Notes under the pieces: model-generated
Database searches by the model: none
Told to the model about the DNA's origin: nothing
What the model saw: only the letters and a program-made list of their open reading frames with translations
Made by a program: the position numbers and the translations under genes
Shown: one piece after another, positions 32,404 to 58,875 of the stretch
Numbering within the stretch: position 1 is the first letter of the stretch
How the letters are laid out: each line of letters starts with the position of its first letter
NCBI RefSeq assembly: GCF_037042905.1
Contig: NC_087250.1
Coordinates: 26,724,001-26,788,000 of the forward strand
Reading direction: 5' to 3'
DNA from: Lytechinus pictus
Lineage: Eukaryota
DNA: 64,000 bases

Positions 32404-35400
32404 TTAAGTTTCCATCATAATCCATAATATGTTTCAGTCTGTAAATATTTTTTTCATATAATTTTTGGTTAAATATGCATTTCCCTTCAATTCGTACAAA
32501 TTTATTATTAAAAAATATCTCATTTCCTTAATATGTTTCAGATTTTAATCAAAAATCCTTCGTCTCTATCCATACTTCAAACAAATCTATATAAAATTGC
32601 GGCAATGCTATCTCCAACAATCCAAGCAAGTAATCGCATGAAAATATAAAATTTCCTCCTAGATGTTTTGTGGCATAATTGAAATATTGTTTCCATTTCA
32701 TTGCATTATTTTCCTTTATTCTTTTAATCCACATAACTCTCTGTGCCTTTATTAACCATTGACAATTCATCATTTTCAAGCCACCTTGATGGTAATCTAA
32801 ATACATCGTTCTTTTGTTGATCTTATTTCTGCCACCCCACAAAAAAGTAAAAGCCAACTGATCAAGTTCAACATAAATCCATCCTGGGATTGGTGTGAGA
32901 GATGCCACATATATGAATTTTGAAAAGATAAATTGCTTTAATAATTGTATTTTGCCCATCAAGGTTAAATCTCTTTGCTTCCACCAGTTTAACAACTTCT
33001 TTATTTTACTTAATATTTCTTTATAATTCAATCTTTATTTTACTTCTACATCTAAAGAAAAAAATACACCGAGAATCTTTATAAAATCCACCTTTTGGCC
33101 AAAAGATGAATCATATGATTTTCCTTGAGAGGAACCTAGTAATAAAACCTTCATCTTATCGCTATTAACTCTATAAAGTCCTGATATTTTTCTGAATTTT
33201 TCTGAATTTTTCTAAAATTTCTATTACTTTTTTGACGAATCTAGATCTTGGACAAAAATAGACATATCATCTGCATACATAACCTGTTTTACTTCTTCCT
33301 TTTCAAAGGAAATTCATTTAACATCATTATTATATCTTACATTATGCGCTAATACTTCTATGCATAAAATGAAAAGATATGGTGAAAGCGGATCTCCCTG
33401 CCTTACCCCTCTTTCCACATGAAAATAGTTTGTAGAATCTCCTCCATTAAAATTACAACTTTGGCTATTTGTATACAATATTTTGACCCATTTGCGAAAT
33501 TGCTGGCCAAAACCGAATGAACCTAATGTTTGATGTAAAATGTGTGGGATATCGAATCAAAGGCTTTTTCTAAATCAATTGCTATCATATACCCAGGGAT
33601 ATTATTATATAACGTATGAAAAAGCATATCATCAATTAATCTGATAGCTTCTCCTATATTCCTGCTTTTAATAAATCCTATTTGATCCGCTAATACAACG
33701 CTTTCCAAAACCTCTTTAATTCGTTTTGCTAAAACTTTGGATATGATCTTGTAATCTGTATTCAATAACGAAATGGGTCTATAATTATTTACGTAATGTG
33801 GGTCCTTCCCTTCTTTAGCTATAAATAAAATAATAATTGCTTGTTTTTGTGATGCAGAAAGTTCTCCAAGAGCAAAAGCTTCATTGAATGCCCCAATCAA
33901 TACATCCTTTATTTCAGCCCAAAATGTACAATAAAATTCAACTGTTAACCCATCGTTTCCAGGGGATTTATTTTGCTTCATTTCTTTCAGTACCGAAATA
34001 CACTCCTCTTCTAATATATCCCCTTCACAGCTTTCAGAATCTTCAGATGTTAACGTTGGCACATTTTTAAAGAAATCCCTAAAATCTTCTGTGTATTCCC
34101 TAGCATAAAGATTGGTATAAAATGATTTAATTTCATTTAAAACTTCTTTCTCATTTTCAGTAATTTCTTCGTTAACCTTAACTAATTTTGTTATAGTACT
34201 TTTCTTCTTGTTAGATTGTAATAGTTGACTAAAATACCTTGTATCCCTTTCTCCACTTTCGTACCATGTTGCACGAGACCGAATTTTAATACCTTCATTA
34301 ATGTAATCGTAACTGTCTGCAAGTTCTTTCCTTTTCTTTTCTATCTTTTTAATCAATTCTTCATCTACTGAATTTACGCAACTACCTTCTAAAAATTTCA
34401 ATTCCTTTTCGAGAGATTCTTTTTTTTATTTTTTTTTCCTTAGCCAGTTTTTTCAAAAAAGTTATTGTGAAAGACATTATTTTCATTTTCAAATAATCCC
34501 ATACAACTCTTCTATCTTTAACTTCTGTCTTTATTTTCTCCTTTAATGTAAGTATTTCTATTTTCATCTTTTTCACATATTCTACATTACCACAAAGGCT
34601 ATTATTAAATTTCCAATAAGAACCATTCTTTTTACGCATTTCCTTATCAGTTTTATCATACAAGAACAAAAATATAGCTGAATGGTCAGGAGCTATAGAT
34701 GGTACAATTTTGCACCTAATAACAACATTCACCAATTCATCTGATATTAGCCAATGATCTAATCTGCTTTGCATAAACGGATTATTTTTAGTGAAGGTAA
34801 ATTGTCTTTTCAATAGATTTCTCTCCCTCCATATGTCTATCAATTGTAGTTCCTCTATAAAATTGTCTACTTCTTTACTAACCTTGTCATGTAATTTTTG
34901 TTTCACTGTTCCATTATAATCTAATTCAGAATTCATAATAATATTAAAATCTCCTCCCATTAAAACAGGTTTGTTACAACTATTTATTTTGTTTAATTTT
35001 ATAAGCATATATTTTATTTGATGATTTTCTTTATCCCTCGTCGGTAAGTATACATTACAAAGGACCATTTTATGTCCTTGGATTTCACAATCAATGAGTA
35101 TGTATCGCCCTTCGTCATCTTGTTTTATATTTATAAGTTTAAAGTCTAGCGAGGTTTTGATAAGAATGAGTACTCCTCTGCTGTGATTTGATCCATGACT
35201 ATAGTAACATGACCCATCCCACCCAGAACTCCATCTATCCTCTACATCTTTTGTACTATACGTCTCCTGTAAAATAATTACATCCCCTTTTTCTTTGCAC
35301 CATGAAAATATTCGTCCCCTTTTCGCGCATTCTCTCATTCCTCTAACATTTAAGGAAACAAAATTACAATTTAAACATCTATTCATAAAGAAAATCTAAA

Positions 35401-41831: not shown

Positions 41832-42307
41832 GTAGCTTTCCTTATAAAATGTGTTTAATGACAAAAGAGGTATTTTATTGTTTTACAAACTTCTCAAGTT
41901 TTCTCTTCTTCCACATTTTTTTCTTACATTTTTCCCCTGTGCCAAATCTATTTAGAAACTAAGCTGAACTACCCAATTAGTCAGATTGAAACTCTAGTAA
42001 GCATGTGACCCAGTAATGCGAGTTTGATAATTTCATTCATATTTCAAAAAAGAAGGCAAAATATAAATGACTAAATTGAAATAAAAATCTTAATTCCAAT
42101 ATATTTCACATAACATTGACCTGGTTTATAATAAAACTGTAAGATTTATGACCCTGGAACATACAATAATGCCTCTGACTGCCTCTTTCATCCAATACCA
42201 TTAACAATAATAATTCGGTAAATCATTGTTTTAGGAAGTATAAGGTATATCGTCCGGTGATACAAAAATTACAACATACAACATACAACGTAATTTGAAT
42301 TTGTTAC

Positions 42308-44469
42308 CTTGGAGAAATCAACTGTCTGACTGATTCATCCCTAGCATAGTGGATCGGTATATTGCCTGCTTTGTCTTCTGTGTCAGATCGTGCTCCATTT
42401 GTAAGAAGGACCTTTACAATGTCAATGTAGCTATTCTTAGCAGCAATGTGTAGAGCAGTCTGACCATCGTTATCACCCCTATTGACTTCAGCTCCGTGGC
42501 TGATCAGATATTTGATGACGTCAAGGCGGCCATTCTTAGCAGCAATGTGTAGAGCACTCTGACCATCGTTATCACTCAAATTGACTTTAGCTCCTAGGAT
42601 GATCAGAGAGCTGATGACGTCAAAAAGGTTATTCTTAGCAGCGATGTGTAGTGCAGTCTGACCATCAATACCACCCTTATTGACTTCGGCTCCTTGGCTG
42701 ATCAGATATTTGATGACGTCAAGATGGCCATTCTTAGCAGCGATGTGTAATGCGGTCTGACCATCATTACCACCCTTATTGATCTCGGCTCCTTGGCTGA
42801 TCAGATATTTGATGAAGTAAAGACGGCCATTCTTAGCAGCAATGTGTAGAGCAGTCTCACCATCGTTATCACCCCTATTGACATCAGCTCCTTGGCTGAT
42901 CAGATATTTGATGACGTCAAGATGGCCATTCTTAGCAGCAATGTGTAGAGCAGGCTGACCATCGTTACCACCCATATTGACATCAGCTCCTTGGCTGATC
43001 AGATATTTGATGACGTCAAGATGGCCATTCTTAGCAGCAATGTGTAGAGCAGGCTGACCATCGTTACCACCCATATTGACATCAGCTCCTTGGCTGATCA
43101 GATATTTGATGGCGTCAAGATAGCCATTCTTAGCAACAATGTGTAGAGCAGGCTGACCATCGTTACCACCCATATTGACATCAGCTCCTTGGCTGATCAG
43201 ATATTTGATGACGTCAAGATGGCCATTCTTAGCAGCGATGTGTAGTGCAGTCTGACCATCAATGTCACCCTTATTGAACCTAGCTCCTTGGCTGATCAGA
43301 TATTTGATGACGTCAAGATGGCCATTCTTAGCAGCGATGTGTACTGCGGTCTGACCATCAATACCACCCTTATTGACTTCGGCTCCTTGGCTGATCAGAT
43401 ATTTGATGACGTCAAGATGGCCATTCTTAGCAGCGATGTGTAGTGCAGTCTGACCATCAATACCACCCTTATTGACTTCGGCTCCTTGGCTGATCAGATA
43501 TTTGATGACGTCAAGATGGCCATTCTTAGCAGCGATGTGTAATGCGGTCTGACCATCATTACCACCCTTATTGATCTCGGCTCCTTGGCTGATCAGATAT
43601 TTGATGAAGTAAAGACGGCCATTCTTAGCAGCAATGTGTAGAGCAGTCTCACCATCGTTATCACCCCTATCGACATCAGCTCCTTGGCTGATCAGATATT
43701 TGATGACGTCAAGATAGCCATTCTTAGCAACAATGTGTAGAGCAGGCTGACCATCGTTACCACCCATATTGACATCAGCTCCTTGGCTGATCAGATATTT
43801 GATGACGTCAAGATGGCCATTCTTAGCAGCGATGTGTAGTGCAGTCTGACCATCAATATCACCCTTATTGAACCTAGCTCCTTGGCTGATCAGATATTTG
43901 ATGACGTCAAGATGGCCATTCTTAGCAGCGATGTGTACTGCGGTCTGACCATCATTACCACCCTTATTGATCTCGGCTCCTTGGCTGATCAGATATTTGA
44001 TGACGTCAAGATGGCCATTCTTAGCAGCAATGTGTAGAGCAGGCTGACCATCGTTACCACCCATATTGACATCAGCTCCTTGGCTGATCAGATATTTGAT
44101 GACGTCAAGATGGCCATTCTTAGCAGCGATGTGTAGTGCAGTCTGACCATCAATATCACCCTTATTGAACCTAGCTCCTTGGCTGATCAGATATTTGATG
44201 ACGTCAAGATGGCCATTCTTAGCAGCGATGTGTACTGCGGTCTGACCATCATTACCACCCTTATTGATCTCGGCTCCTTGTCTGATCAGATATTTGATGA
44301 CGTCAAGATGGCCATTCTTAGCAGCGACGTATAAAGCAGTGTATCCTTCCCTGGTCACTTTGTTCACATTTACTCCATGCCCAAGTATAGTTGTGATTTT
44401 CCCCAGAAAACCCAGCGATGCAGCTAAATGTAAATCTGTAGTATGTCCATCTCCATTCTCCATCTCCAC
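42308..44469 (-). CDS. Ankyrin-repeat protein exon (~21 repeats of 33 aa)
   Basis: Tandem 99-bp units encoding TALHIAAKNGHLDVIKYLISQGA; donor ccaag|gtaac at 42307; the upstream repeat at ~44470-44530 is out of frame, so the start is uncertain. Confidence 0.9.
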
Positions 44470-44654
44470 ATCAGCTCCGTGCTTTATACGAAATTTAATG
44501 AGATCCCCTTACCGCTTCGGTATGTAGAGCTAGGTAAAATAGCAATATCAAATCCGTGCGTGGTATACAAATGATGCATGCAGATGTGTTTATTATGCAT
44601 ACAGTTTCGATATCAATCCATTCCACGAAGCGAACAGGCCTTTGGTTGAATTGG

Positions 44655-45103
44655 GGGCGCATGTACCACTGATAGGATCCTGCAATTTCGGGAATCCCCT
44701 TTAGACCCGTACCTTAAAATGACGTAATGGTTGGAACGGTGCATATCTCAGCAATTTTTTTCATATGGGCATAGAGAGGGATTACTACTGGATCTGTTCA
44801 GTCCCATGGGAGAGCAGTAATTTGTCAATGCTAGATTTTATGGGACCTTAATTAGTTGCCCAAGAAACCCTGTGAGCACTGTGACTGCAACCAAGTTTGC
44901 ACGTAGTCTTGGTTTGAGCCGCTGTAGCGCGAAAAAATATTGAAAAACACCCTTTCATATCTTTAGCATTTGAAGGATATTGGATACACTACCAAATGAT
45001 AAAGGTGTGGATGATGTCATTTCTAAGACTTATTTTTGGCGATTTTTTCAAATCTCATTTTTAACACATGAGTCTATGGGGAAATAGTTAGTGGTGTGTG
45101 CCC
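44655..45103. repeat. 449-bp terminal unit (LTDR) with its own TIRs
   Basis: Begins gggcgcatgtaccactga, ends ttagtggtgtgtgccc, followed by tcaa; its first ~345 bp recur inverted at 56235-56597. Confidence 0.85.
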
Positions 45104-45418
45104 TCAACAGGTATTGTGCAGTAAACAGGGCTAGTTGGATGTAATTGCTGCTGGAAGGGAAACTGATTAAAAAGAAGGTGTGCAAACACTCTGAATAAAT
45201 GCCTGCCCTGTTGTTCTATCATGAAAACCCAATTGGCAGCTAACTAGGCACCATTTTCTTCAAAATACTCAAACAAATATAAAAATGCCACTTTTGCCAT
45301 TGACTTTGTATGTAATTTTGGCACTCTCCTACATTGGGGTCTTAAATGCAAGACTAGCACGCGCGTAGTAATCAGAAATACGTGTAGATCGTAGACCAAA
45401 ACATAAACAGGCCAGCAC

Positions 45419-48400
45419 CATAGAGATGTATACTAATAACGCTAGAGTGCGGAGTCGCCATAGGCGCGCGTACTTAACGTTTGTGATTGCGCGGAGAATG
45501 GTCGGCCATTGCTCGATAGGTCTCGATTTGCAAAAGTACCCGGATGTACGCATAGCTCGTGCGTTGTAATGCTGTGAAAAAGGGATGCCGTCTCCGGCCT
45601 TTTTCTTGAAGAAAAGAATCCAACCTAATTACAATCGAAAATATGAATGACAAATTGCATCTCAATAAACTATTAGAGTGATTACATGGGGATTCTGCTA
45701 TTAATTTGGCATTTTTAAACCTGATTTCTCGGGATGAAATTCTAAATAATTTGCATTTATACCTGTCCGTTTATAGGCCTTTAATAGATAACAATGTTGA
45801 TACTATCATATAAATAATTAGATAAAAATAAAAACATACAACGGACATTAATAGAAAGATTGACAATTGATTCAAAAGACAGTGAATTAGCCCATCCCCG
45901 GAGCCCATCTTCTCTGGATTTCCTTACCTTTAACTGCATCGTCCCCACGGCATATTTCCTTCAATCACGTCCTTTCATTCCATGTTCTCGTGACCAATTT
46001 GTTTATGTCGGATATAATTTTGTAATTTCTATATAGGCCTACAATATGTAACTTGCTTTAATTTGTATGAAATATAGGCCTATCATTTTTATATATTAAG
46101 TTGTACAATAATTTGTATAATGTTCTGATCTTTGATTACTATATATATAAAACATGCGCTATTATAATTTTAGTATAATTAAAGGGCATCTCATTGTTGT
46201 TCTTGGTGAGCCTCCCGTTACACCATCAATGTTAAAATTTGTGTTATTTGGTGAACGTCCTAATTTTGTTCTTATAGGAACATAATAAATTCCCCAAAAT
46301 CTGCAGGCCTATATGGCCCGAAAATGAAATATTGATAAAAAAATGTCGAGAATATAGCTTTTTATTGCAAACTTTTCACTTTTTAATTCCCTTCACTAAG
46401 TTCACTTTAAGTTAGATTTTTTTATTCGCTTTTTAGGGGGCCGTACACGTGTGTAATTAAAGTAACAAAGGTACCCTAGCAAATTCGCTTTAACATACTG
46501 ATCAAAATAAAATACAGGCTGCGCGACCGGATCCCTCCTTGAAATGAAAATGAACATTACACATAATAAATGATTTTGATTTTATGCACCCCATCACTTT
46601 CAAAATCATTCCGCGACGCCGTAGGTCTATAACATGATATAATAATTTTGTTCATCCATGGAAATCTTATTGTAAAAAAAAAAAGAATGATCCCCCGGAA
46701 ATAATCAAACTCAGGTCCATAGGCCAGCCAATGACATTAAAGGAAGAAAACTAGAAAATCAAATTCATATTATACTGTTAAAATGAAAAACAAAACTGAA
46801 TATTCAAAACGCGTGTTTATCTGTTTATAATTATGTATAGGCCGGTGCCTAAGAATATTTGCCATAAATTTCATTTATTCAAGCGACACAGACACAGTTA
46901 ATTAACACGATTTCAAGGCAGGTATCAAATTTGTAATATCTTACTCCAAGTATTTGTCAGTTTTGCAATATTATTGTTCCATAATTATGTTCATAGGCGG
47001 CGGAAGCGGGGGGGGGACAGGTCCCCCCTCCCCCTAAAATTGAGGTGGGGGACGGTCCCCCCTCCCTAAATTTGTTGTTGATAACCTTTTTTTTTTTTTT
47101 GCTTGTCAATTTTTTTTACCTGTGTCCATCACAATATTTCAGGTGGACTCCCCTAAATTTTGTGGCTTCCGCCGCCAGTGATTATGTTTGGTTTTAGTGC
47201 TCACAATATTTTGCAACCGTTTTCATATAATTATAATAAGTTTATTAAGTTTGCATTAATCTCTTTCATGATATTGTTATTGGTTTTATACACTCTTGCA
47301 GTAGTATTAATGTTCTTTATAGTATAATACAAATTATATATCCTAATCCCGCCCCTTTTCTTCTCCTCTCCTTCTCCCCCTTCTTCCTCTCCTTATTATT
47401 CTATCCTTGATTTGTTCACATAATATTGGTCCAATCATTATAGGATCAGAAACACCGGCGATAAACAGAAAATGTCAGTCAGTCTGCCGATCAGCATAGT
47501 ATTTCAGCCGGGGAGAATCAAGTCTAGACTTTCCAGAAAATCAAAGTGAAATTGTTTTATGTTGCGCATTGCGATTTGTTTACTTTCCGAAGTTTTGAAA
47601 TGTTTGCAAGGCAATTTAACACTGTAAACAGCATAAACTCCCCCCCCCCCACCCCCTTAGGCCTCCTGTACATTGCAAAATTGTACGACTGCAAGAGCGC
47701 ATTTGATATGCAAATTTTGCTGTCAACAAACTTTTCTACATTGATCGCAAGTACATGAAGTAAGAAAGTAAATATGATATGGGATGGCTGCCAGCAAAGG
47801 AAATCTAAATCATCAATTTTTAACTGAATCAATGCGTAAATCATTTTCAAATATCAATAAAAAGTCGGGTTTTTGTGATGTTGGTTAATTACATCAGCGT
47901 GTAAGACATGGGGAAAAGGGATCGAGTTAGGCCCTATTCTATGTATGATTTCTTTATGTAGATCTATATGGAAAATGAATTATAACAATGATCTAAAGTG
48001 AAGAAATAAATTATCAGCAATCAGTATAATAGTAATTAGGAAACTATACTTGAAAAAATACAATCGTGTTTTTTTTTCTCGATACCTTAGTGTCTCGGAT
48101 GCATCAGACACTGGCCTATGAATTTTCTTAGGTTAATTTCACCAAATCATATTAAGACATATTAAATTAGTTTATCAGGACCTAGGCCTAAATGTTATTT
48201 TTGATATTCATCTCTTCCAAATTATTAGAAAATAGAAGTCATATTAATGTATCGAAATTTTACCAAAGCAAAAGCAATTGGGACTGTAAATCGTTTGCCT
48301 TTATTATAGTTGTATAGGCCTATATTATGCGCTAGAGATAGGCCTATATAGGATTTTTGACCTCAGTTTTGCTAGATTTTTTTTGTTATTTGAACTTTAA

Positions 48401-48604
48401 TCCAGTGCAATATTTAAAATTTTGCTTTCGCGCTCAAATGTCATCAATTTGTCCTGTTCTGTGCTCATCCGTGTACATGCCCCATAGGTACTGTACGCGC
48501 ATGGCAGGCTGCGAAGACCTATCGAGCAATGGCGGCCGGTCTCCGCGTAATCACAGCGATTTGACGAAGTACGCCCTCTAGCGTTATTAGTATACATCTC
48601 TATG
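45419..48604. mobile_element. Non-autonomous P-element-like insertion in INT1
   Basis: 29-bp TIR catagagatgtatactaataacgctagag; 8-bp TSD gccagcac (45411-45418, 48605-48612); empty site in INT2 at ~52574. Confidence 0.9.
46992..47180. mobile_element. Small hAT-like MITE
   Basis: TIR cataggcggcggaagc / gcttccgccgccagtg; 8-bp TSD attatgtt. Confidence 0.8.
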
Positions 48605-48837
48605 GCCAGCACCGACACCGGCACCTAGTTTATTGTTAGTAATTCTCTTTCAACATCTTCCTAAGATAGGATTTTCAGTCAAGTTAAAAGGAATAACATG
48701 GCAAGGTAAAATTTGAAGTTTTTATATGGAATTTTATAGCAATGAATGTCTGGTTACTGAAATTCATTACAGAGGGCAAAACTTACTATTATTAATTAAT
48801 GTTATTTGGCTGTATAGGCCTAGTACCGTACACAATC

Positions 48838-49244
48838 ATGGCTGATCCACATCAGGAATGGTGTTCCAAATATTCAAAACTATTGGACAGTAAGACAGAA
48901 AAGAGGGGAAATGAGCCGTCGGCATGCTGGCCATTTAAAGGGCGAACAAAAAATGGGTATGGCTTAGTGGATGTGAACATCCCAGCCCCAGGCAGCCGTA
49001 AGACCACTAGGCATGCCCATCATCGGCTTGTGCTGATGACAAGGGTGGCGATGACTTGGGAGCTAGGTTTCGTCTGAGCTCCATGAGTCCATGCCTCTCA
49101 CCTTTGCGGTAATCGCATCTGTGTGAGGCCAAGGCCAAGCCATTTAGTGTTTGAGAGCCATATGAAGAGAAAAAACAGCGTCAAATTTGCCATAATTTGA
49201 AAACTTGCCAATCCCACGAGCCCCCTTGCATCATATCAGCCTGA
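48838..49244 (+). pseudogene. His-Me finger nuclease, disrupted copy
   Basis: Same sequence as 52797-53180 with several 2-8-bp insertions. Confidence 0.9.
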
Positions 49245-49371
49245 CTTAAGTATCACTGTGAGTGTGTGACTAACTGAGACTACAGTGAGTTTATTAACTA
49301 ATTTTAGGGAAATTAGGCATAGAGGTCTGGGCCTAGACTACATAATTATTAAACAAATAAAGTGATCCAAA

Positions 49372-51400
49372 GTCAAGATCTAGTTTCCCCTTTATCGCAG
49401 ATCTTTCTGTCATAGCTAGGAGTGATCACTTTGAATAGATATGTGAGTGTTTTCTAATTGTCCCTTCACATAAGAGTGGAAATTGCTGTCATCTTTCCAC
49501 CTTTTTACCTTTTGATACAGTTTGTATTTATACTCCCTATGTGTAGCTTTGGACTTAATTGCTGTCATCTTTTTACTTCTCTTTCTCCAGTAGTCCCTTC
49601 TCTGCTGCAGATGCAAGAGCTTGTGTCGAAGTCTTGATCCCCCTTTCACTGGAACCTGGGCAGCTAAGGCCTTGTCAAGGATCGATGCGGGGCCCCCGTT
49701 GGTAAGTTGTATTGCAGAATGCTCTCTGTTTGCTTGATTTCTGACATAGGTAGTGGAATGCTTTGGGTAGGTTACTCTGAAAGCAGAATTCATTGACTCT
49801 GCCTTTTGTGTTGACAAATTAAACCGTGTTCTCCTGAGGGTTTGAGTGGACAGTCTTTGACGTATTGTTCCCAAAATTTGTTGCTGATCTCTCATATTAA
49901 GCGTTATCCGCTGTCTAAACTCCAGAGGTAAAAAGGGAAATTTGAACCCTCCGTTACATGCTAGGCTCTGGTTCCAGCACAGTTCATGATTTCCAGTATA
50001 ACACAAAATCATTGCCTCCCCACATCTTTGCAACTGTTCTTCGTATACTAAAATGTCCCCTGATTGATTATGTGCTGAATTTAATTCAGCTTGAACCCTG
50101 TAAGCAATGTCGCCTGCCATTGCTCTCTGCTGCTTGTCTCTCAGTCTTGAAGTTTTACCTGGGAAAGAATTTTTGCTCAGAGTAAGTCTTTCCAATTTTT
50201 TACACGGAGACCGCTTCAGGTGATTGACACAAAGGTATGATGTTGGATCTACACCAGCTGCGCTCTTCATGACTTCTTGGACTCCCCTGTGAAAGTGTCC
50301 ATCACTATCGCTAACAACACCTTTGACAAGTAGCTGCGTTTTATCTCCAGTAAGTAATTTTTGTGCACATTTTTGTCCACCAAGCATTTCGTCCCCTATG
50401 TTATCACTCATCTTTATTGTGGCTGTACACTTAGGATGGTTAGGGCAGGCAGGTTCTTTTCCTTGACCAACTAATCTCTGGCCTACTCTACAAAGTCACA
50501 ACATCACGAGCTTGAGTCGCTGGTGCAAATGGTGTTCTCCCCTTTGCATGGCTGAGAGGTATGTTATATTGTCTGTCAATTTCTATGTTAATAGGTGTAT
50601 TTCTGTCCATCCCTCTGTACTCCAAAATGTCTTTCACCTTCCTGCGCTTTTCTGCCATATCCAATTCATTGGCAGCGGCCAAGATATCACCACATTTGTT
50701 AGCTGTCTTTTGGAAACCGCTAAGTGATCCAGTTGGAATACTCATTGCTGTTAGAATCCTGCTTGCAGCAGCATTTGCAATACTGCTTTGGTATAGCCCC
50801 ACCTGTAGAGCCATGTTTGGTACAGCAGTTTTTCTCCCTGATTCTGTTTTATCAATCTCTCTGAAAAACTTTAGAGCGGTTGATTCAAATTTACAAGTCC
50901 TGCACCTGAATACGACAGTAACTGCAATTCCTCTTATCTTTTCTTTTTCTTCAGGAATCATCCAGTCCATGTTTGAACACCCAGGGCTACAATGTGAATG
51001 CTGTTGGCAAGCTTCATTAATTGATGGCCATGGTGAGCTTCTCTACATCAACAATCCGATGACCGACAGCTGAACCATCAGTGGATGTCAACATTTTTGC
51101 CAGTGGTACAGAGTCTTCTGATGTCTTTGGCCTGAGAATCATGGTTGTAGAAGAGCGACTGACAGGTTGATCATGCTTGTGAAGAAAGTTGCCACGCTCA
51201 TCACGGGACATTGTGCGGTCCAAGTCCTCTCTTGTTAGACGTACATATTTGGTCTTGAGAATACTGTTGGAATTACCAGCTTCCCACTTCAGCCCCTTAT
51301 TCCATGCTCTATGGCCAGGTACAAAAAGGTTCTTTCGCTTGTCAGATAGTTTCTTGGGGCCCATTGTGATTGCTTTTGGTTTGGCAGGGAAAGTTTTCAC
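49372..51400 (-). pseudogene. DDE transposase, disrupted copy
   Basis: Near-identical to 53301-55373 but with a 53-bp deletion at ~50497 and 4-bp insertions at ~51017 and ~49415. Confidence 0.9.
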
Positions 51401-52796
51401 TTGTATTTATACACTTTTCTACTGTGCATCCTCCCCCCCCCCCCCCTCCTCCCCACAATAAGGAGAAGAAAAAAAAATCACAATTATGTCATGATTTCCT
51501 CCCTATTTTACAGGGAAATCATTTTCTTTTTAACCCAGAAGGGCAGCAGTGACGTATTTTGTAGCCAGAATTCCATGAGTACTTCCATGTCCTTCACCTA
51601 GTTTACATTACACAATTGTTATGGTGACAGATTCATATTCCACACTGGCCAGCAATAAATGTCCCTTTAGTATACTACTGAATCAATACTCTGGATCATG
51701 ATAATAATCACAATGTATTCAGCTATCATTCTCTGTCATTTGGCTCTTCTCAATAACCCCCTCCCGGCCCCTCTCTCTCTCTCTCCCCCCCCCTCTCTCC
51801 CTTTCCTCCTTCCATTTTTCATCCCTTTCTGTCAACATGTCACTCATTTTCTCTGCCTTCTGTAAAACTATGAATGTTATTACACACAAGGCACTTAGAT
51901 TTGCTTTTTCTTTTGTTTTTATTGTTTTTTCTCTTGAATTGTGATATTAATTTCAAGTGATAATGACTTAGAAAAATGAATCAAGTACTATTAAAACACA
52001 TTTACAACATTTCAAAGGTGATGATTATCATTAAATTTCAATTCATGAACATGGATTGAGCTTAAACATTACAAAATTTTCTTATAGGTGCATTGTTTCA
52101 ACATTGTGTATTCTGTCTGTATTATAACCCTGGAGAGACAATGTTTATTCCCTGATCAGAAGAGAACGGGGTCTCCAAAAAAAAAAAAAAATTAACATTA
52201 TGCATATGATACCCTAAGGTTGTGCCAAAAAAAAAAATTCCCAAGTTCAGTGAGAATCGCACCCTCTCAACAGGTATTGTGCAGTAAACAGGGCTAGTTG
52301 GATGTAATTGCTGCTGGAAGGGAAACTGATTAAAAAGAAGGTGTGCAAACACTCTGAATAAATGCCTGCCCTGTTGTTCTATCATGAAAACCCAATTGGC
52401 AGCTAACTAGGCACCATTTTCTTCAAAATACTCAAACAAATATAAAAATGCCACTTTTGCCATTGACTTTGTATGTAATTTTGGCACTCTCCTACATTGG
52501 GGTCTTAAATGCAAGACTAGCACGTGCGTAGTAATCAGAAATATGTGTAGATCGTAGACCAAAACATAAACAGGCCAGCACCGACACCGGCACCTAGTTT
52601 ATTGTTAGTAATTCTCTTTCAACATCTTCCTAAGATAGGATTTTGAGTCAAGTTAAAAGGAATAACATGGCAAGGTAAAATTTGAAGTTTTTATATGGAA
52701 TTTTATAGCAATGAATGTCTGGTTACTGAAATTCATTACAGAGGGCAAAACTTACTATTATTAATTAATGTTATTTGGCTGTAGGCCTACACAATC

Positions 52797-53180
52797 ATGG
52801 CTGATCCACATGAGGAATGGTGTTCCAAATATTCAAAACTATTGGACAGTAAGACAGAAAAGAGGGGAAATGAGCCGTCGGCATGCTGGCCATTTAAAGG
52901 GCGAACAAAAAATGGGTATGGCTTAGTGGATGTGAACATCCCAGCCCCAGGCAGCCGTAAGACCACTAGGCATGCCCATCGGCTTGTGCTGATGACAAGG
53001 GTGGCGATGACTTGGGAGGTTTCGTCTGAGCTCCATGCCTCTCACCTTTGCGGTAATCGCATCTGTGTGAGGCCAAGCCATTTAGTGTTTGAGAGCCATG
53101 AAGAGAACAAACAGCGTCAAATTTGCCATAATTTGAAAACTTGCCAATCCCACGAGCCCCCTTGCATCATATCAGCCTGA
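52797..53180 (+). CDS. His-Cys-box / His-Me finger homing-endonuclease-like protein (127 aa)
   Basis: CWPFKG..GYG...HAHRL...ASHLCGNRICVRPSHLVFESHEENKQRQIC...C..HEPPC motif pattern; aataaa at ~53284. Confidence 0.9.
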   Translation: MADPHEEWCSKYSKLLDSKTEKRGNEPSACWPFKGRTKNGYGLVDVNIPAPGSRKTTRHAHRLVLMTRVAMTWEVSSELHASHLCGNRICVRPSHLVFESHEENKQRQICHNLKTCQSHEPPCIISA

Positions 53181-53300
53181 CTTAAGTATCACTGTGACTA
53201 ACTGAGACTACAGTGAGTTTATTAACTAATTTTAGGGAAATTAGGCATAGAGGTCTGCGCCTAGACTACATAATTATTAAACAAATAAAGTGATCCAAAG

Positions 53301-55337
53301 TCAAGATCTAGTTTCCCCTTTATCGCAGATCTTTCTGTCATAGGAGTGATCACTTAGAATAGATATGTGAGTGTTTTCTAATTGTCCCTTCACATAAGAG
53401 TGGAAATTGCTGTCATCTTTCCACCTTTTTACCTTTTGATACAGTTTGTATTTATACTCCCTATGTGTAGCTTTGGACTTAATTGCTGTCATCTTTTTAC
53501 TTCTCTTTCTCCAGTAGTCCCTTCTCTGCTGCAGATGCAAGAGCTTGTATCGAAGTCTTGATCCCCCTTTCACTGGAACCTGGGCAGCTAAGGCCTTGTC
53601 AAGGATCGATGCGGGGCCCCCGTTGGTAAGTTGTATTGCAGAATGCTCTCTGTTTGCTTGATTTCTGACATAGGTAGTGGAATGCTTTGGGTAGGTTACT
53701 CTGAAAGCAGAATTCATTGACTCTGCCTTTTGTGTTGACAAATTAAACCGTGTTCTCCTGAGGGTTTGAGTGGACAGTCTTTGACGTATTGTTCCCAAAA
53801 TTTGTTGCTGATCTCTCATATTAAGCGTTATCCGCTGTCTAAACTCCAGAGGTAAAAAGGGAAATTTGAACCCTCCGTTACATGCTAGGCTCTGGTTCCA
53901 GCACAGTTCATGATTTCCAGTATAACACAAAATCATTGCCTCCCCACATCTTTGCAACTGTTCTTCGTATACTAAAATGTCCCCTGATTGATTATGTGCT
54001 GAATTTAATTCAGCTTGAACCCTGTAAGCAATGTCGCCTGCCATTGCTCTCTGCTGCTTGTCTCTCAGTCTTGAAGTTTTACCTGGGAAAGTATTTTTGC
54101 TCAGAGTAAGTCTTTCCAATTTTTTACACGGAGACCGCTTCAGGTGATTGACACAAAGGTATGATGTTGGATCTACACCAGCTGCGCTCTTCATGACTTC
54201 TTGGACTCCCCTGTGAAAGTGTCCATCACTATCGCTAACAACACCTTTGACAAGTAGCTGCGTTTCATCTCCAGTAAGTAATTTTTGTGCACATTTTTGT
54301 CCACCAAGCATTTCGTCCCCTATGTTATCACTCATCTTTATTGTGGCTGTACACTTAGGATGGTTAGGGCAGGCAGGTTCTTTTCCTTGACCAACTAATC
54401 TCTGGCCTACTCTACAAAGTTTGTTTGTTGAATTGTAAGTTACAATGTACTTCTCCGGGGTCACATTTTCTGTCACAACATCACGAGCTTGAGTCGCTGG
54501 TGCAAATGGTGTTCTCCCCTTTGCATGGCTGAGAGGTATGTTATATTGTCTGTCAATTTCTATGTTAATAGGTGTATTTCTGTCCATCCCTCTGTACTCC
54601 AAAATGTCTTTCACCTTCCTGCGCTTTTCTGCCATATCCAATTCATTGGCAGCGGCCAAGATATCACCACATTTGTTAGCTGTCTTTTGGAAACCGCTAA
54701 GTGATCCAGTTGGAATACTCATTGCTGTTAGAATCCTGCTTGCAGCAGCATTTGCAATACTGCTTTGGTATAGCCCCACCTGTAGAGCCATGTTTGGTAC
54801 AGCAGTTTTTCTCCCTGATTCTGTTTTATCAATCTCTCTGAAAAACTTTAGAGCGGTTGATTCAAATTTACAAGTCCTGCACCTGAATACGACAGTAACT
54901 GCAATTCCTCTTATCTTTTCTTTTTCTTCAGGAATCATCCAGTCCATGTTTGAACACCCAGGGCTACAATGTGAATGCTGTTGGCAAGCTTCATTGATGG
55001 CCATGGTGAGCTTCTCTACATCAACAATCCGAAGACCGACAGCTGGACCATCAGTGGATGTCAACATTTTTGCCAGTGGTACAGAGTCTTCTGATGTCTT
55101 TGGCCTGAGAATCATGGTTGTAGAAGAGCGACTGACAGGTTGATCATGCTTGTGAAGAAAGTTGCCACGCTCATCACGGGACATTGTGCGGTCCAAGTCC
55201 TCTCTTGTTAGACGTACATATTTGGTCTTGAGAATACTGTTGGAATTACCAGCTTCCCACTTCAGCCCCTTATTCCATGCTCTATGGCCAGGTACAAAAA
55301 GGTTCTTTCGCTTGTCAGATAGTTTCTTGGGGCCCAT
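53301..55337 (-). CDS. Kolobok/Mutator-like DDE transposase, intact (first ATG 55337; frame open to 55373)
   Basis: Candidate triad IEID / VSDSD / QKAES; CxxH (CVNH) after the second Asp; Cys/His clusters CRTC and CPNHPKC. Confidence 0.85.
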   Translation of the reverse strand: MGPKKLSDKRKNLFVPGHRAWNKGLKWEAGNSNSILKTKYVRLTREDLDRTMSRDERGNFLHKHDQPVSRSSTTMILRPKTSEDSVPLAKMLTSTDGPAVGLRIVDVEKLTMAINEACQQHSHCSPGCSNMDWMIPEEKEKIRGIAVTVVFRCRTCKFESTALKFFREIDKTESGRKTAVPNMALQVGLYQSSIANAAASRILTAMSIPTGSLSGFQKTANKCGDILAAANELDMAEKRRKVKDILEYRGMDRNTPINIEIDRQYNIPLSHAKGRTPFAPATQARDVVTENVTPEKYIVTYNSTNKLCRVGQRLVGQGKEPACPNHPKCTATIKMSDNIGDEMLGGQKCAQKLLTGDETQLLVKGVVSDSDGHFHRGVQEVMKSAAGVDPTSYLCVNHLKRSPCKKLERLTLSKNTFPGKTSRLRDKQQRAMAGDIAYRVQAELNSAHNQSGDILVYEEQLQRCGEAMILCYTGNHELCWNQSLACNGGFKFPFLPLEFRQRITLNMRDQQQILGTIRQRLSTQTLRRTRFNLSTQKAESMNSAFRVTYPKHSTTYVRNQANREHSAIQLTNGGPASILDKALAAQVPVKGGSRLRYKLLHLQQRRDYWRKRSKKMTAIKSKATHREYKYKLYQKVKRWKDDSNFHSYVKGQLENTHISILSDHSYDRKICDKGETRS

Positions 55338-56957
55338 TGTGACTGCTTTTGGTTTGGCAGGGAAAGTTTTCACTTGTATTTATACACTTTTCTACTGTGC
55401 ATCCTCCCCCCCCCCTCCCCACAATAAGGAGAAGAAAAAAAAATCACAATTATGTCATGATTTCCTCCCTATTTTACAGGGAAATCATTTTCTTTTTAAC
55501 CCAGAAGGGCAGCAGTGACGTATTTTGTAGCCAGAATTCCATGAGTACTTCCATGTCCTTCACCTAGTTTACATTACACAATTGTTATGGTGACAGATTC
55601 ATATTCCACACTGGCCAGCAATAAATGTCCCTTTAGTATACTACTGAATCAATACTCTGGATCATGATAATAATCACAATGTATTCAGCTATCATTCTCT
55701 GTCATTTGGCTCTTCTCAATAACCCCCTCCCGGCCCCTCTCTCTCTCTCCCCCCCCCCCCCTCTCTCCGGGCCCTTTCCTCCTTCCATTTTCCATCCCTT
55801 TCTGTCAACATGTCACTCATTTTCTCTGCCTTCTGTAAAACTATGAATGTTATTACACACAAGGCACTTAGATTTGCTTTTTCTTTTGTTTTTATTGTTT
55901 TTTCTCTTGAATTGTGATATTAATTTCAAGTGATAATGACTTAGAAAAATGAATCAAGTACTATTAAAACACATTTACAACATTTCAAAGGTGATGATTA
56001 TCATTAAATTTCAATTCATGAACATGGATTGAGCTTAAACATTACAAAATTATCTTATAGGTGCATTGTTTCAACATTGTGTATTCTGTCTGTATTATAA
56101 CCCTGGAGAGACAATGTTTATTCCCTGATCAGAAGAGAACGGGGTCTCCAAAAAAAAAAAAAAAATTAACATTATGCATATGATACCCTAAGGTTGTGCC
56201 AAAAAATAAAATTCCCAAGTTCAGTGAGAATCGCATCATTTGGTAGTGTATCCAATATCCTTCAAATGCTAAAGATATGAAAGGGTGTTTTTCAATATTT
56301 TTTCGCGCTACAGGGGCTCAAACCAAGACTACGTGCAAACTTGGTTGCAGTCACAGTGCTCACAGGGTTTCTTGGGCAACTAATTAAGGTCCCATAAAAT
56401 CTAGCATTGACAAATTACTGCTCTCCCATGGGACTGAACAGATCCAGTAGTAATCCCTCTCTATGCCCACATGAAAAAAATTGCTGAGATATGCACCGTT
56501 GATTTTATATTAATATTTTTCCAACCATTACGTCATTTTAGGTACGGGTCTAAAGGGGATTCCCGAAATTGCCGGATCCTATTAGTGGTGTGCGCCCTTC
56601 AGAGGGTGCGATTCTCACTGAACTTGGGAATTTTTTTTTTTGGCACAACCTTAGGGTATCATATGCATAATGTTAATTTTTTTTTTTTTGGAGACCCCGT
56701 TCTCTTCTGATCAGGGAATAAACATTGTCTCTCCAGGGTTATAATACAGACAGAATACACAATGTTGAAACAATGCACCTATAAGATAATTTTGTAATGT
56801 TTAAGCTCAATCCATGTTCATGAATTGAAATTTAATGATAATCATCACCTTTGAAATGTTGTAAATGTGTTTTAATAGTACTTGATTCATTTTTCTAAGT
56901 CATTATCACTTGAAATTAATATCACAATTCAAGAGAAAAAACAATAAAAACAAAAGA

Positions 56958-58875
56958 TAATTCTAGAGAAATTTAATATTGACATTTCAGAGGACACTTT
57001 AGATATAGGGGCCTACACCCAAACAAATTTTGCAGCACATGCTATTGCCATCTCACAATCAAGAAACCATTACATTGGACACCAAAAAACTGGGACACAC
57101 ATAGGAGAACATCACACTGTCATACATGTACACATTTTAAAGAAACACAAACACCAGGCAGACCAAAGAAAAGAAAAGCTGGTGGCCGCCCCCCTGCAAC
57201 AACAACACCCCAGTCTCACTTTTCTCAATTAGGAGTATCACTATCAGGAACAACAGACAATCAAAAATACAACATCAATCAAGACACATTTCACATTGAT
57301 AATTCACTACAATTCCTTTTGTGTTGTGTTTGTAGGTCTGTTGTGTCATGTCCTGTCGAGTCACCTTGTAACCACCTGTTTTGTCTTGACTGTATATCGT
57401 CTCTCTTTGTCAAAGTGTCTGTTAGCTGTCCTCTTTGTAACATTCAATTTCATTATTCTCAAACACACACACCAGCCGCATACATCATCACATTACTACA
57501 AAATCTTCATGTTCAGTGTTCACATTGTAAAACATCCCTTCACTACACCCAAACATCAGGCCATTCGTGTCATACTCGTGTAAACTGTGACCATACATAC
57601 GCAAAATGTACGCAAATGGACCTCAACACCCAACAACGCCGGCAGATAGCCTCTGAATACCTCAAATGTCAGATGGCCAAGTCACATGATGGTATGTCAG
57701 CCAGCATAGGTTTAGCAGGTCGTGGAAAGGTAAATGCAAAAGTCTTATCTCCTAGCTACCGGTAGTTTAAAGTAACAATCATCATCACATATTTCAAACT
57801 TGCAGAAGATTTTGTGGAAGACGAACAAGTTAGGGTCTCAAAATATATCATTCTCTTTATCATTGTCAGTCAAATTTATTTCAGAAGTTTCAACATTTAA
57901 AAAAGTTATTTCAATAGTCCCAGTAGATTTGAATTATGCAAGGTTGATCAGGTTGAATTCACATATAAAGGCAAATGATTGGGTATATATTACCCAAGTA
58001 ATATTAGTAAATATGTATTTTATTATATACATATTATATATATAATTTCAGTTTCATACATTTAAGTTTTCATACTGTAAAGAAATTAGCCATTAATGTA
58101 TTTTAGTTCACAGTATAAGAAACAAATAAAATAATCATAATGGTGCATATATCATGTAAGTATAACAACAAAACTTTGCCCCCCCCCCACCAAACAAAAC
58201 TAAAAATAACAAAAGAAAACATGGATTTCTAGAAAGTCATAGATATCATTTAATTGCTATAATTTAACTATTTTCTAGATACACAACCCTGTATGTTGAA
58301 TCCTCATTAGATATACATGTATTCTAAAAGATTTTAATAATTTTACACCATTATCTTGAATAATATAATGTTATTTTGAAAATGAAACTTCAGCGGTAAC
58401 TTGCCATCTATATATTCTTACAGCCTATGAGAGCTTTCAAAATTCCAAGCAGCATCGTACCAAGTACAACCTGTTCATCATCCACCCTCCGTAAAAGAAC
58501 GTCAATAATACATCATGTAAGGCAAGAGGTTTCTGGTGGGAGAGAGGCAGCCGATACTCAACAGCAACATGAAGTTTCCCAATCTGCAAGCATCACAGGG
58601 ATCTTGGGCCCACAACCCCTCCATATTCCATCAAGAGACATTATGGAGCTGAAAAGCTTCTTCAGCTTGAGTTGGAGAAAGCTACGACGTTTGAAGAGGT
58701 GACTTGAACAATCTTTGTTATGGACATTCATGTAATTACACCCCGGAAGAGGGTACTCAGATTTGGTTTGGACGGGGATCTGCAGCTGAAGAGTTCATAC
58801 CCATACTTATTAAGTTAATGGGTCATTTAGTCAGAAAGGAATAATAATAATAACAATAATAATAATAATAATAAC

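Follow-up and report, generated by a model that had tools for sequence, protein, structure and literature searches.

Gene content of the locus

The 64,000-nucleotide stretch of the Lytechinus pictus genome analysed here (contig NC_087250.1, positions 26,724,001 to 26,788,000; hereafter the window) is eukaryotic DNA with a G+C content of 30-45%. It harbors a DNA transposon locus in which a gene for a small His-Me (His-Cys-box) nuclease and a gene for a DDE transposase converge (Table 1). The nuclease gene is an ATG-to-stop open reading frame (ORF) of 127 amino acids (aa), and the transposase gene encodes 678 aa. Their stop codons face each other across a 120-bp gap (53181-53300) with an AATAAA signal on each strand, and transcripts ending at both signals would overlap tail to tail over roughly 100 nt. 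A previous sequence-only reading of the window had described the 127-aa nuclease, a transposase of ~680 aa, their convergence across 120 bp, the AATAAA signals of the two strands, and the uninterrupted state of both ORFs, and each of these points was confirmed.

The nuclease matched Pfam family PF05551 (zf-His_Me_endon, the zinc-binding loop region of homing endonuclease) with an E-value of 4.8e-15 and 56.4 bits, against a curated cut-off of 27; a weak match to HNH_3 fell below the cut-off. Its best match by sequence in the PDB was I-PpoI (E-value 0.004), in an alignment of residues 80-113 with I-PpoI 95-128 that takes in S97/H98, H110, E114, and N119 of I-PpoI. An AlphaFold2 (AF2) model of the nuclease had a mean predicted local distance difference test score (pLDDT) of 88.2, and its top four Foldseek matches were all I-PpoI chains (probability 0.97-0.99), followed by I-HmuI and then by SMAD MH1 and NFI domains. 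For the nuclease of KolobokP transposons, HHpred searches reported by Kojima & Bao (Mob DNA 2022, PMC9587614) returned the same two endonucleases, I-PpoI and I-HmuI.

An alignment of seven nucleases, three of them representing families of this genome and four taken from the database, showed 11 invariant residues: C30, S82, H83, C85, C90, H95, E99, N104, C110, C116, and C123. H83, the general-base histidine, and N104, the metal-binding asparagine, correspond to I-PpoI H98 and N119. The conserved cysteines and histidines (C30, C85, C90, H95, C110, C116, and C123), together with the candidate zinc-ligand position H119, which is replaced in one of the seven proteins, presumably correspond to the eight Cys/His ligands of the two zinc sites of I-PpoI. 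The protein thus resembles I-PpoI-type enzymes in its His-Me (beta-beta-alpha-metal) core, in its equivalents of S97/H98/H110/E114/N119, in its best fold match, and presumably in its Cys/His zinc ligands. However, it has 127 aa compared with the 162-163 aa of I-PpoI, whose long C-terminal part it lacks, and it is encoded within the INT part of a DNA transposon rather than in a group I intron, the setting of the His-Cys-box enzymes that home to the intron-less allele. We therefore liken it to the intron homing endonucleases and do not file it among them.

The transposase matched Pfam family PF20700 ('Mutator-like transposase') with an E-value of 1.8e-42. In an alignment of nine relatives, the invariant residues were D262, C308/C323/H326/C329, D369/D371, C395-x2-H398, C471/H476/C479/C486, and E539. 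Database relatives numbered four for the nuclease and 13 for the transposase.

Organization of the locus

The order of the parts was derived from a self-comparison of the window, from comparison with other genomic copies, and from the junction sequences. On the forward strand, a complete long terminal direct repeat (LTDR) is followed by two internal regions (INT1 and INT2), an inverted and truncated LTDR, an inverted INT end, and another young repeat. At the INT1-INT2 junction, a full INT end (...CCCTCTGAA) followed by an INT start (TCAACAGG...) would be expected; the junction instead reads CCCTCTCAACAGG, and therefore four bases are missing. At the join between INT2 and the inverted LTDR (56235/56236), microhomology amounts to at most one base.

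Table 1. Positions of the parts of the transposon locus within the window.
Feature	Position	Strand	Description
Complete LTDR	44655-45103	+	449 bp; the 466-bp LTDR of the genome minus 17 bp (deletion); termini GG...CC
CCCATAGACT box	45071-45080	-	Positions 24-33 from the LTDR terminus; sole exact copy in the window
INT1, broken internal region	45104-52266		Adjoins the complete LTDR on its left; five small insertions in the nuclease gene; two insertions of 4 bp each and a gap of 53 bp in the transposase gene
Nested non-coding element in INT1	45420-48603		3,184 bp; perfect 28-bp terminal inverted repeats; 10-bp target site duplication GGCCAGCACC
INT1-INT2 junction without LTDR	52262-52274		4 bases gone
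INT2, internal region	52267-56235		Both ORFs intact; compared with a full INT, the final 9 bp are missing
His-Me/His-Cys-box nuclease gene	52797-53180	+	ATG-to-stop ORF, 127 aa
AATAAA 3' of the transposase ORF	53217-53222	-	TTTATT on the forward strand
AATAAA 3' of the nuclease ORF	53284-53289	+	
DDE transposase gene	53301-55337	-	678 aa
Inverted, truncated LTDR	56236-56597	-	Spans ~363 to 1 of the LTDR consensus
Inverted INT end	56598-56960	-	363 bp; junction to the inverted LTDR intact

The sequence-only reading had proposed that a 449-bp module with its own terminal inverted repeats (TIRs) bounds a unit at 52271-56235. Such a module does exist in the window, as the complete LTDR, but the proposed bounding was wrong: INT2 meets INT1 on its left with no LTDR in between, and an inverted, truncated LTDR on its right. 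The window copy thus has one complete LTDR of 449 bp and one inverted partial LTDR in place of a direct pair. We also considered whether an older LTDR had been captured by a younger INT. This idea was rejected, as the window LTDR groups with the LTDRs of the copies L002, L003, and L007 in one young clade, and its 94% identity is mostly due to the one 17-bp deletion.

INT1 and INT2 differ over 48815-51447 by 19 substitutions but by 14 insertions or deletions. Ten of these 14 are insertions of 2-10 bp found in INT1 only, which resemble imperfect tandem duplications of adjacent bases, and six of the ten lie in or beside the nuclease gene. They could be excision footprints, products of templated repair, or assembly errors. 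The element nested in INT1 has a target site duplication (TSD) of Mutator-like size and contains no ORF of at least 100 aa.

Assignment to the KolobokP lineage

KolobokP, which has been little studied, was described by Kojima & Bao (PMC9587614) as an animal DNA transposon carrying genes for a transposase and a His-Me nuclease. As given in that paper, its LTDRs have TIRs of 11-18 bp and 5'-RR...YY-3' termini, its TSDs are 3-5 bp without a fixed sequence, and its forms include solo LTDRs, (LTDR-INT)n multimers, and LTDR-(INT)2-LTDR structures whose INT-INT junction lacks 3-4 bp. The window family shows all of the structural hallmarks that we examined, namely LTDRs of the expected size that have TIRs of their own and GG...CC termini, TSDs of 4 bp, convergent genes, the occurrence of solo LTDRs and of multimers, and a loss of 4 bp where two INTs meet. 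The assignment to the KolobokP-type LTDR-INT-LTDR layout made in the sequence-only reading is thus borne out.

The invariant transposase residues also follow the order stated for KolobokP in PMC9587614, with a CCHC finger following the first D, then a C/DxxH motif, and a further finger preceding the last E; this correspondence was read from the text of the paper. Very probably, the locus is a young KolobokP transposon in the form of a rearranged dimer, an assignment that sets it beside the published proteins by their described motifs.

The Pfam label would instead make the element a Mutator-like element (MULE) with an incidental HNH gene. The strong PF20700 match and the same label on all 13 database relatives of the transposase favor such a classification. 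However, MuDR and other MULEs have 9-11-bp TSDs and long TIRs, and the window family has 4-bp TSDs and 16-bp TIRs that lie inside direct repeats. Furthermore, its transposase carries the invariant Cys/His cluster between CxxH and the last E, and according to PMC9587614 a finger at this position is missing in MuDR, P, and hAT and marks Kolobok. A sister family in the same genome is also close, judged by eye, to the published KolobokP protein. We regard the MULE classification as extremely improbable. It should be noted that, as PF20700 strongly matches the KolobokP transposase and all 13 relatives, automatic annotation will call KolobokP elements Mutator.

Within the KolobokP lineage, Table S1 of PMC9587614 lists a single autonomous echinoid family, KolobokP-1_LyPi (4,984 bp, LTDRs of 466/467 bp, TSD of 4 bp, TIR of 16 bp). 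The window family shares with it the LTDR-INT-LTDR layout, a 466-bp LTDR, a 4-bp TSD, a TIR of ~16 bp, GG...CC termini, and a convergent downstream nuclease gene. However, its monomers are 4,894-4,933 bp long, and its transposase is only ~50% identical to that of the KolobokP-1_LyPi-like family of this genome. The terminal 16-mers of its LTDR were not found in the supplementary sequences of PMC9587614. Given this absence and the ~50% identity, the window family is a new family within the already described KolobokP lineage, in comparison with PMC9587614 only and not with Repbase or later deposits. KolobokP appears to have been reported previously from the group of the host, and the classification adds no new principle. 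The forms given in the Results of PMC9587614 do not include a rearranged dimer in which a partial LTDR is inverted.

The layout can also be compared with bacterial composite or pseudo-compound transposons (IS-flanked elements and IS26 translocatable units), a likeness drawn in the Discussion of PMC9587614: two small mobile modules with TIRs flank a central segment, and solo modules and multimers occur as well. In contrast to these bacterial elements, the flanking modules of KolobokP are non-coding, the central segment carries the enzyme genes, and the host is a eukaryote.

Copies of the window family in the genome

We compared the locus with the genome assembly (812 Mb, 368 contigs). In the search for INT and nuclease sequences all 127 candidates were scored; in the LTDR search the best 40 of 254 candidates were scored, and all 40 matched. 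INT is present at full or near-full length in six copies, two in the window and one on each of four other contigs, and nuclease and transposase genes are linked in all six. Direct LTDR-INT-LTDR monomers with 466-bp LTDRs were found at L002 (4,914 bp), L004 (4,894 bp), and L006 (4,933 bp). L007 is an internally deleted derivative of 2,159 bp with its LTDRs in direct order, which brings to four the loci where the unit (449 bp in the window, 466 bp elsewhere) flanks INT as a direct repeat, as the sequence-only reading had anticipated. The right LTDR of L003 is truncated. Deleted derivatives also form a multimer on contig C5, with three LTDRs ~1,663 bp apart.

The LTDR starts with GGGCGCACACCACTAA; read as the reverse complement, its end is GGGCACACACCACTAA. 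This gives a TIR of 16 bp with one mismatch and GG...CC termini. Perfect 4-bp TSDs (TGAA, TTTA, and CGCA) flank three of the four complete LTDR...LTDR copies, and that of L002 is imperfect. Among 13 loci with an LTDR and no INT nearby, four had incomplete LTDR ends and were left out; six of the remaining nine solo LTDRs are flanked by perfect TSDs of 4 bp that vary in sequence. The INT of L004 and that of L006 have TGAA at both start and end.

At the four insertions that are bounded by LTDRs but lack a perfect TSD (L002, L039, L046, and L055), TCAA, TGAA, or TGAG stands at one flank. By eye, these flanks resemble the tetranucleotides that border INT beside the LTDR, and they may have been carried over from a donor multimer. 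Three LTDR matches covering positions 81-448 were considered as a shared breakpoint marking a cut site, and this was rejected: they are copies with differing internal deletions or truncations. The truncated LTDRs also stop at different positions, at 346 in the right LTDR of L003 and at ~363 in the inverted LTDR of the window. In addition, the locus L063 (G000:C19:5116000-5120500) contains three tandem nuclease-gene fragments without an LTDR or a transposase gene. Only one 127-aa frame is open there; with a zinc Cys and the catalytic-Asn stretch gone, it is a decayed relic.

Sister families and tandem arrays

The nuclease gene is also convergent with a transposase gene in two further families of the genome, represented by L061 and L062, both with open ORFs. 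Together with the six copies of the window family, they support the linkage of the two genes on which the sequence-only reading had made its proposal depend. Compared with the window family, the two share 45-60% identity in the nuclease and 50-51% in the transposase.

L061 (G000:C8:21257000-21266500) belongs to a KolobokP-1_LyPi-like family whose (LTDR-INT)n arrays repeat every 4,461 bp. Over the stretch given in the supplement of PMC9587614, about nine in ten residues of its transposase are identical, by eye, to the printed KolobokP-1_LyPi_1p, and its LTDR ends resemble those of KolobokP-1_LyPi. At least 76 nuclease matches of identical score and without stop codons belong to this family; contig C8 has nine of them, and the other 67 are spread over eight small contigs (C109, C157, C174, C200, C214, C219, C273, and C361), several of which consist of the array only. 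Neighboring units are 99.98% alike, and the array on C8 begins with an LTDR.

L062 (G000:C5:35947000-35956500) represents a third family, with an array of at least eight units that repeat every ~4,346 bp. All units listed have two open ORFs, and identity to the window family is 51% for the transposase and 60% for the nuclease. The LTDR of this family could not be delimited by TIR search or by similarity.

Age, selection, and integrity of the copies

The genes of INT1, INT2, L002, and L003 are only 0-8 substitutions apart, and the burst was therefore recent; identity among young copies is roughly 99%. INT2 alone among the six family copies has both ORFs intact. L002 has an intact transposase gene and a TAG at codon 69 of the nuclease gene, and L003 has an open nuclease ORF and an 11-bp deletion in the transposase gene. 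The nuclease ORFs of L004 and L006 are open with an in-frame 6-bp deletion, and their transposase genes are disrupted by frameshifts in L004 and by a frameshift and two stops in L006. Both genes are broken in INT1.

The ratio of non-synonymous to synonymous substitution rates (dN/dS) was estimated from pairs with the older copies L004 and L006. It was 0.11-0.26 for the nuclease (0.13 for INT2-L006, with 15 synonymous and 8 non-synonymous differences, and 0.26 for INT2-L004) and 0.17-0.36 for the transposase (0.23 for INT2-L006 and 0.36 for INT2-L004), values that come from small counts and a signal diluted by decayed copies. Both the nuclease and the transposase genes are under purifying selection. 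The suggestion of a recent and possibly still functional element agrees with the ~99% identity of the copies, the intact ORFs of INT2, and dN/dS values well below 1.

A conserved box near the LTDR terminus

Between LTDR families, only ~60 bp at one end are conserved. This end contains the box CCCATAGACT, which lies at positions 24-33 from the terminus (counted by hand) in the LTDRs of the window family, L061 (at 718-731 of that locus), four L. pictus records, two Corbicula records, Haliotis rufescens, and Steromphala. The published LTDRs in the supplement of PMC9587614 gave eight exact matches, all within the first 35 nt. In the main text of that paper, neither the words 'subterminal' or 'binding site' nor the CCCATAGACT motif was found. 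The box was absent from the family of the C5 array (L062) at up to one mismatch. This short and deeply conserved box is a candidate protein-binding or cleavage site.

Possible roles of the nuclease

On the role of the nuclease, for which the sequence-only reading had taken no side, a 2026 review says of the proposed model that it 'awaits experimental confirmation'. That model, an 'induced unequal crossover', was put forward for the KolobokP nuclease by Kojima & Bao (PMC9587614). We ranked three roles, with the recombination inducer first, a subunit of the transposition machinery second, and a selfish passenger third.

In the reading that we tentatively favor, the nuclease would make a site-specific break in or at the LTDR end, or at the abutted TIRs of a circle, and thereby induce unequal recombination or the re-integration of an LTDR-INT circle. 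Repair of such a break from a misaligned LTDR copy would then multiply or restore LTDR-INT units. With more certainty, we take it that the DDE transposase binds the short TIRs of the LTDR and mobilizes the complete LTDR-INT-LTDR or one LTDR by itself, its substrate being the two outer TIRs or both TIRs of one LTDR. The INT1-INT2 junction lacks exactly one LTDR and 4 bp, from which we infer an LTDR-excision footprint; it is probably the scar left when one LTDR, with one flanking tetranucleotide, was excised from an (LTDR-INT)2 dimer. The long arrays of the sister families fit a recombination-inducing role of the nuclease, without proving it.

A more specific version makes the nuclease an 'array builder' that recognizes the terminal bases of the LTDR together with the CCCATAGACT box, its break being repaired from a misaligned LTDR. 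We consider this version unlikely. If it were true, the arrays of at least 76 units, the LTDR-less INT1-INT2 junction, and the inverted LTDR breakpoint would be its products, and INT2 would be the only remaining source of both enzymes in the window family.

Several observations weigh against our reading of the locus and its nuclease. As they lie in a repeat, the INT-INT and inverted junctions could conceivably have arisen by misassembly. A direct pair of proper LTDR ends is missing from the window copy; its own mobility is doubtful, and it could therefore at most supply proteins in trans. The Pfam family of the transposase bears the name Mutator, and the AF2 model of the transposase, built from nine sequences, was unusable (pLDDT 47.5). 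No cut-site signal emerged from the LTDR, where semi-palindromes, the type of site on which I-PpoI-type homodimers act, were not in excess (7-bp arms, at most one mismatch) over 300 shuffles (2 versus 3.7 ± 2.5), and the truncated LTDRs share no common breakpoint. Transcription of INT2 was seen as a trace only, with 6, 2, and 5 RNA reads (13 in total) among 8.7, 8.3, and 12.9 million records read from three raw runs. All but one of the 13 reads are only 95-99% alike to INT2 and may come from sister copies; they therefore indicate trace transcription at the level of the family that is not assignable to the window copy.

The nuclease might alternatively be a subunit of the transposition machinery that cuts the second strand or opens a circle or hairpin intermediate, by analogy with TnsA beside TnsB. 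In Tn7, the DDE protein TnsB is paired with the separate small endonuclease TnsA in one element. The likeness to KolobokP lies in the combination of a DDE protein with a small endonuclease; the TnsA fold is restriction-enzyme-like, unlike the His-Me fold of the KolobokP nuclease. To our knowledge, KolobokP is the only eukaryotic cut-and-paste lineage that pairs a DDE transposase with a homing-endonuclease-type nuclease.

A subunit role agrees with the strict linkage and convergence of the two genes in three families, where the frames are open at 45-60% nuclease identity, and with the nuclease dN/dS of 0.11-0.26. The TIR-TIR junction of a circle would also offer one strong palindrome to a dimeric I-PpoI-type enzyme, and PMC9587614 describes other Kolobok lineages with other nucleases (DEDDh and PD-D/ExK). 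However, most Kolobok lineages and some KolobokP families apparently lack a nuclease according to the same paper, and L002 combines an intact transposase gene with a nuclease stop at codon 69. A subunit role is arguable but doubtful.

The nuclease gene could also be a selfish passenger, a homing-endonuclease gene that entered an ancestral Kolobok and converts nuclease-less copies without benefit to the transposon. Among proteins of solved structure, intron homing enzymes are closest to it, and derivatives of the family that are deleted and nuclease-less (L007 and those on contigs C17 and C15, for example) would be potential targets. However, the gene has been retained in seven animal phyla (PMC9587614), the nuclease is under purifying selection in the window family, and an empty nuclease-insertion site with a conserved target was not identified. 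We consider a passenger quite unlikely.

This genome offers material for addressing the role of the nuclease. It holds a young family with one doubly open copy and with LTDR-less and inverted junctions, a sister family in long arrays of intact units, and a conserved LTDR box as a candidate site.

Other features of the window

Next to the inverted INT end, another young repeat occupies 56961-57960 and has four genomic copies at 99% identity; from 56961 to the end of the window there is no ORF of at least 120 aa. On the other side of the locus, a 734-aa open frame of ~20 ankyrin repeats lies on the reverse strand (42304-44508), built from a 99-bp tandem unit in 19 copies at 90% identity, and ends 146 bp from the KolobokP LTDR. 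Fragments of non-LTR retrotransposons are present at 454-1545 on the forward strand, encoding a reverse transcriptase, and at 33523-35395 on the reverse strand, encoding an endonuclease/exonuclease/phosphatase domain and a reverse transcriptase.

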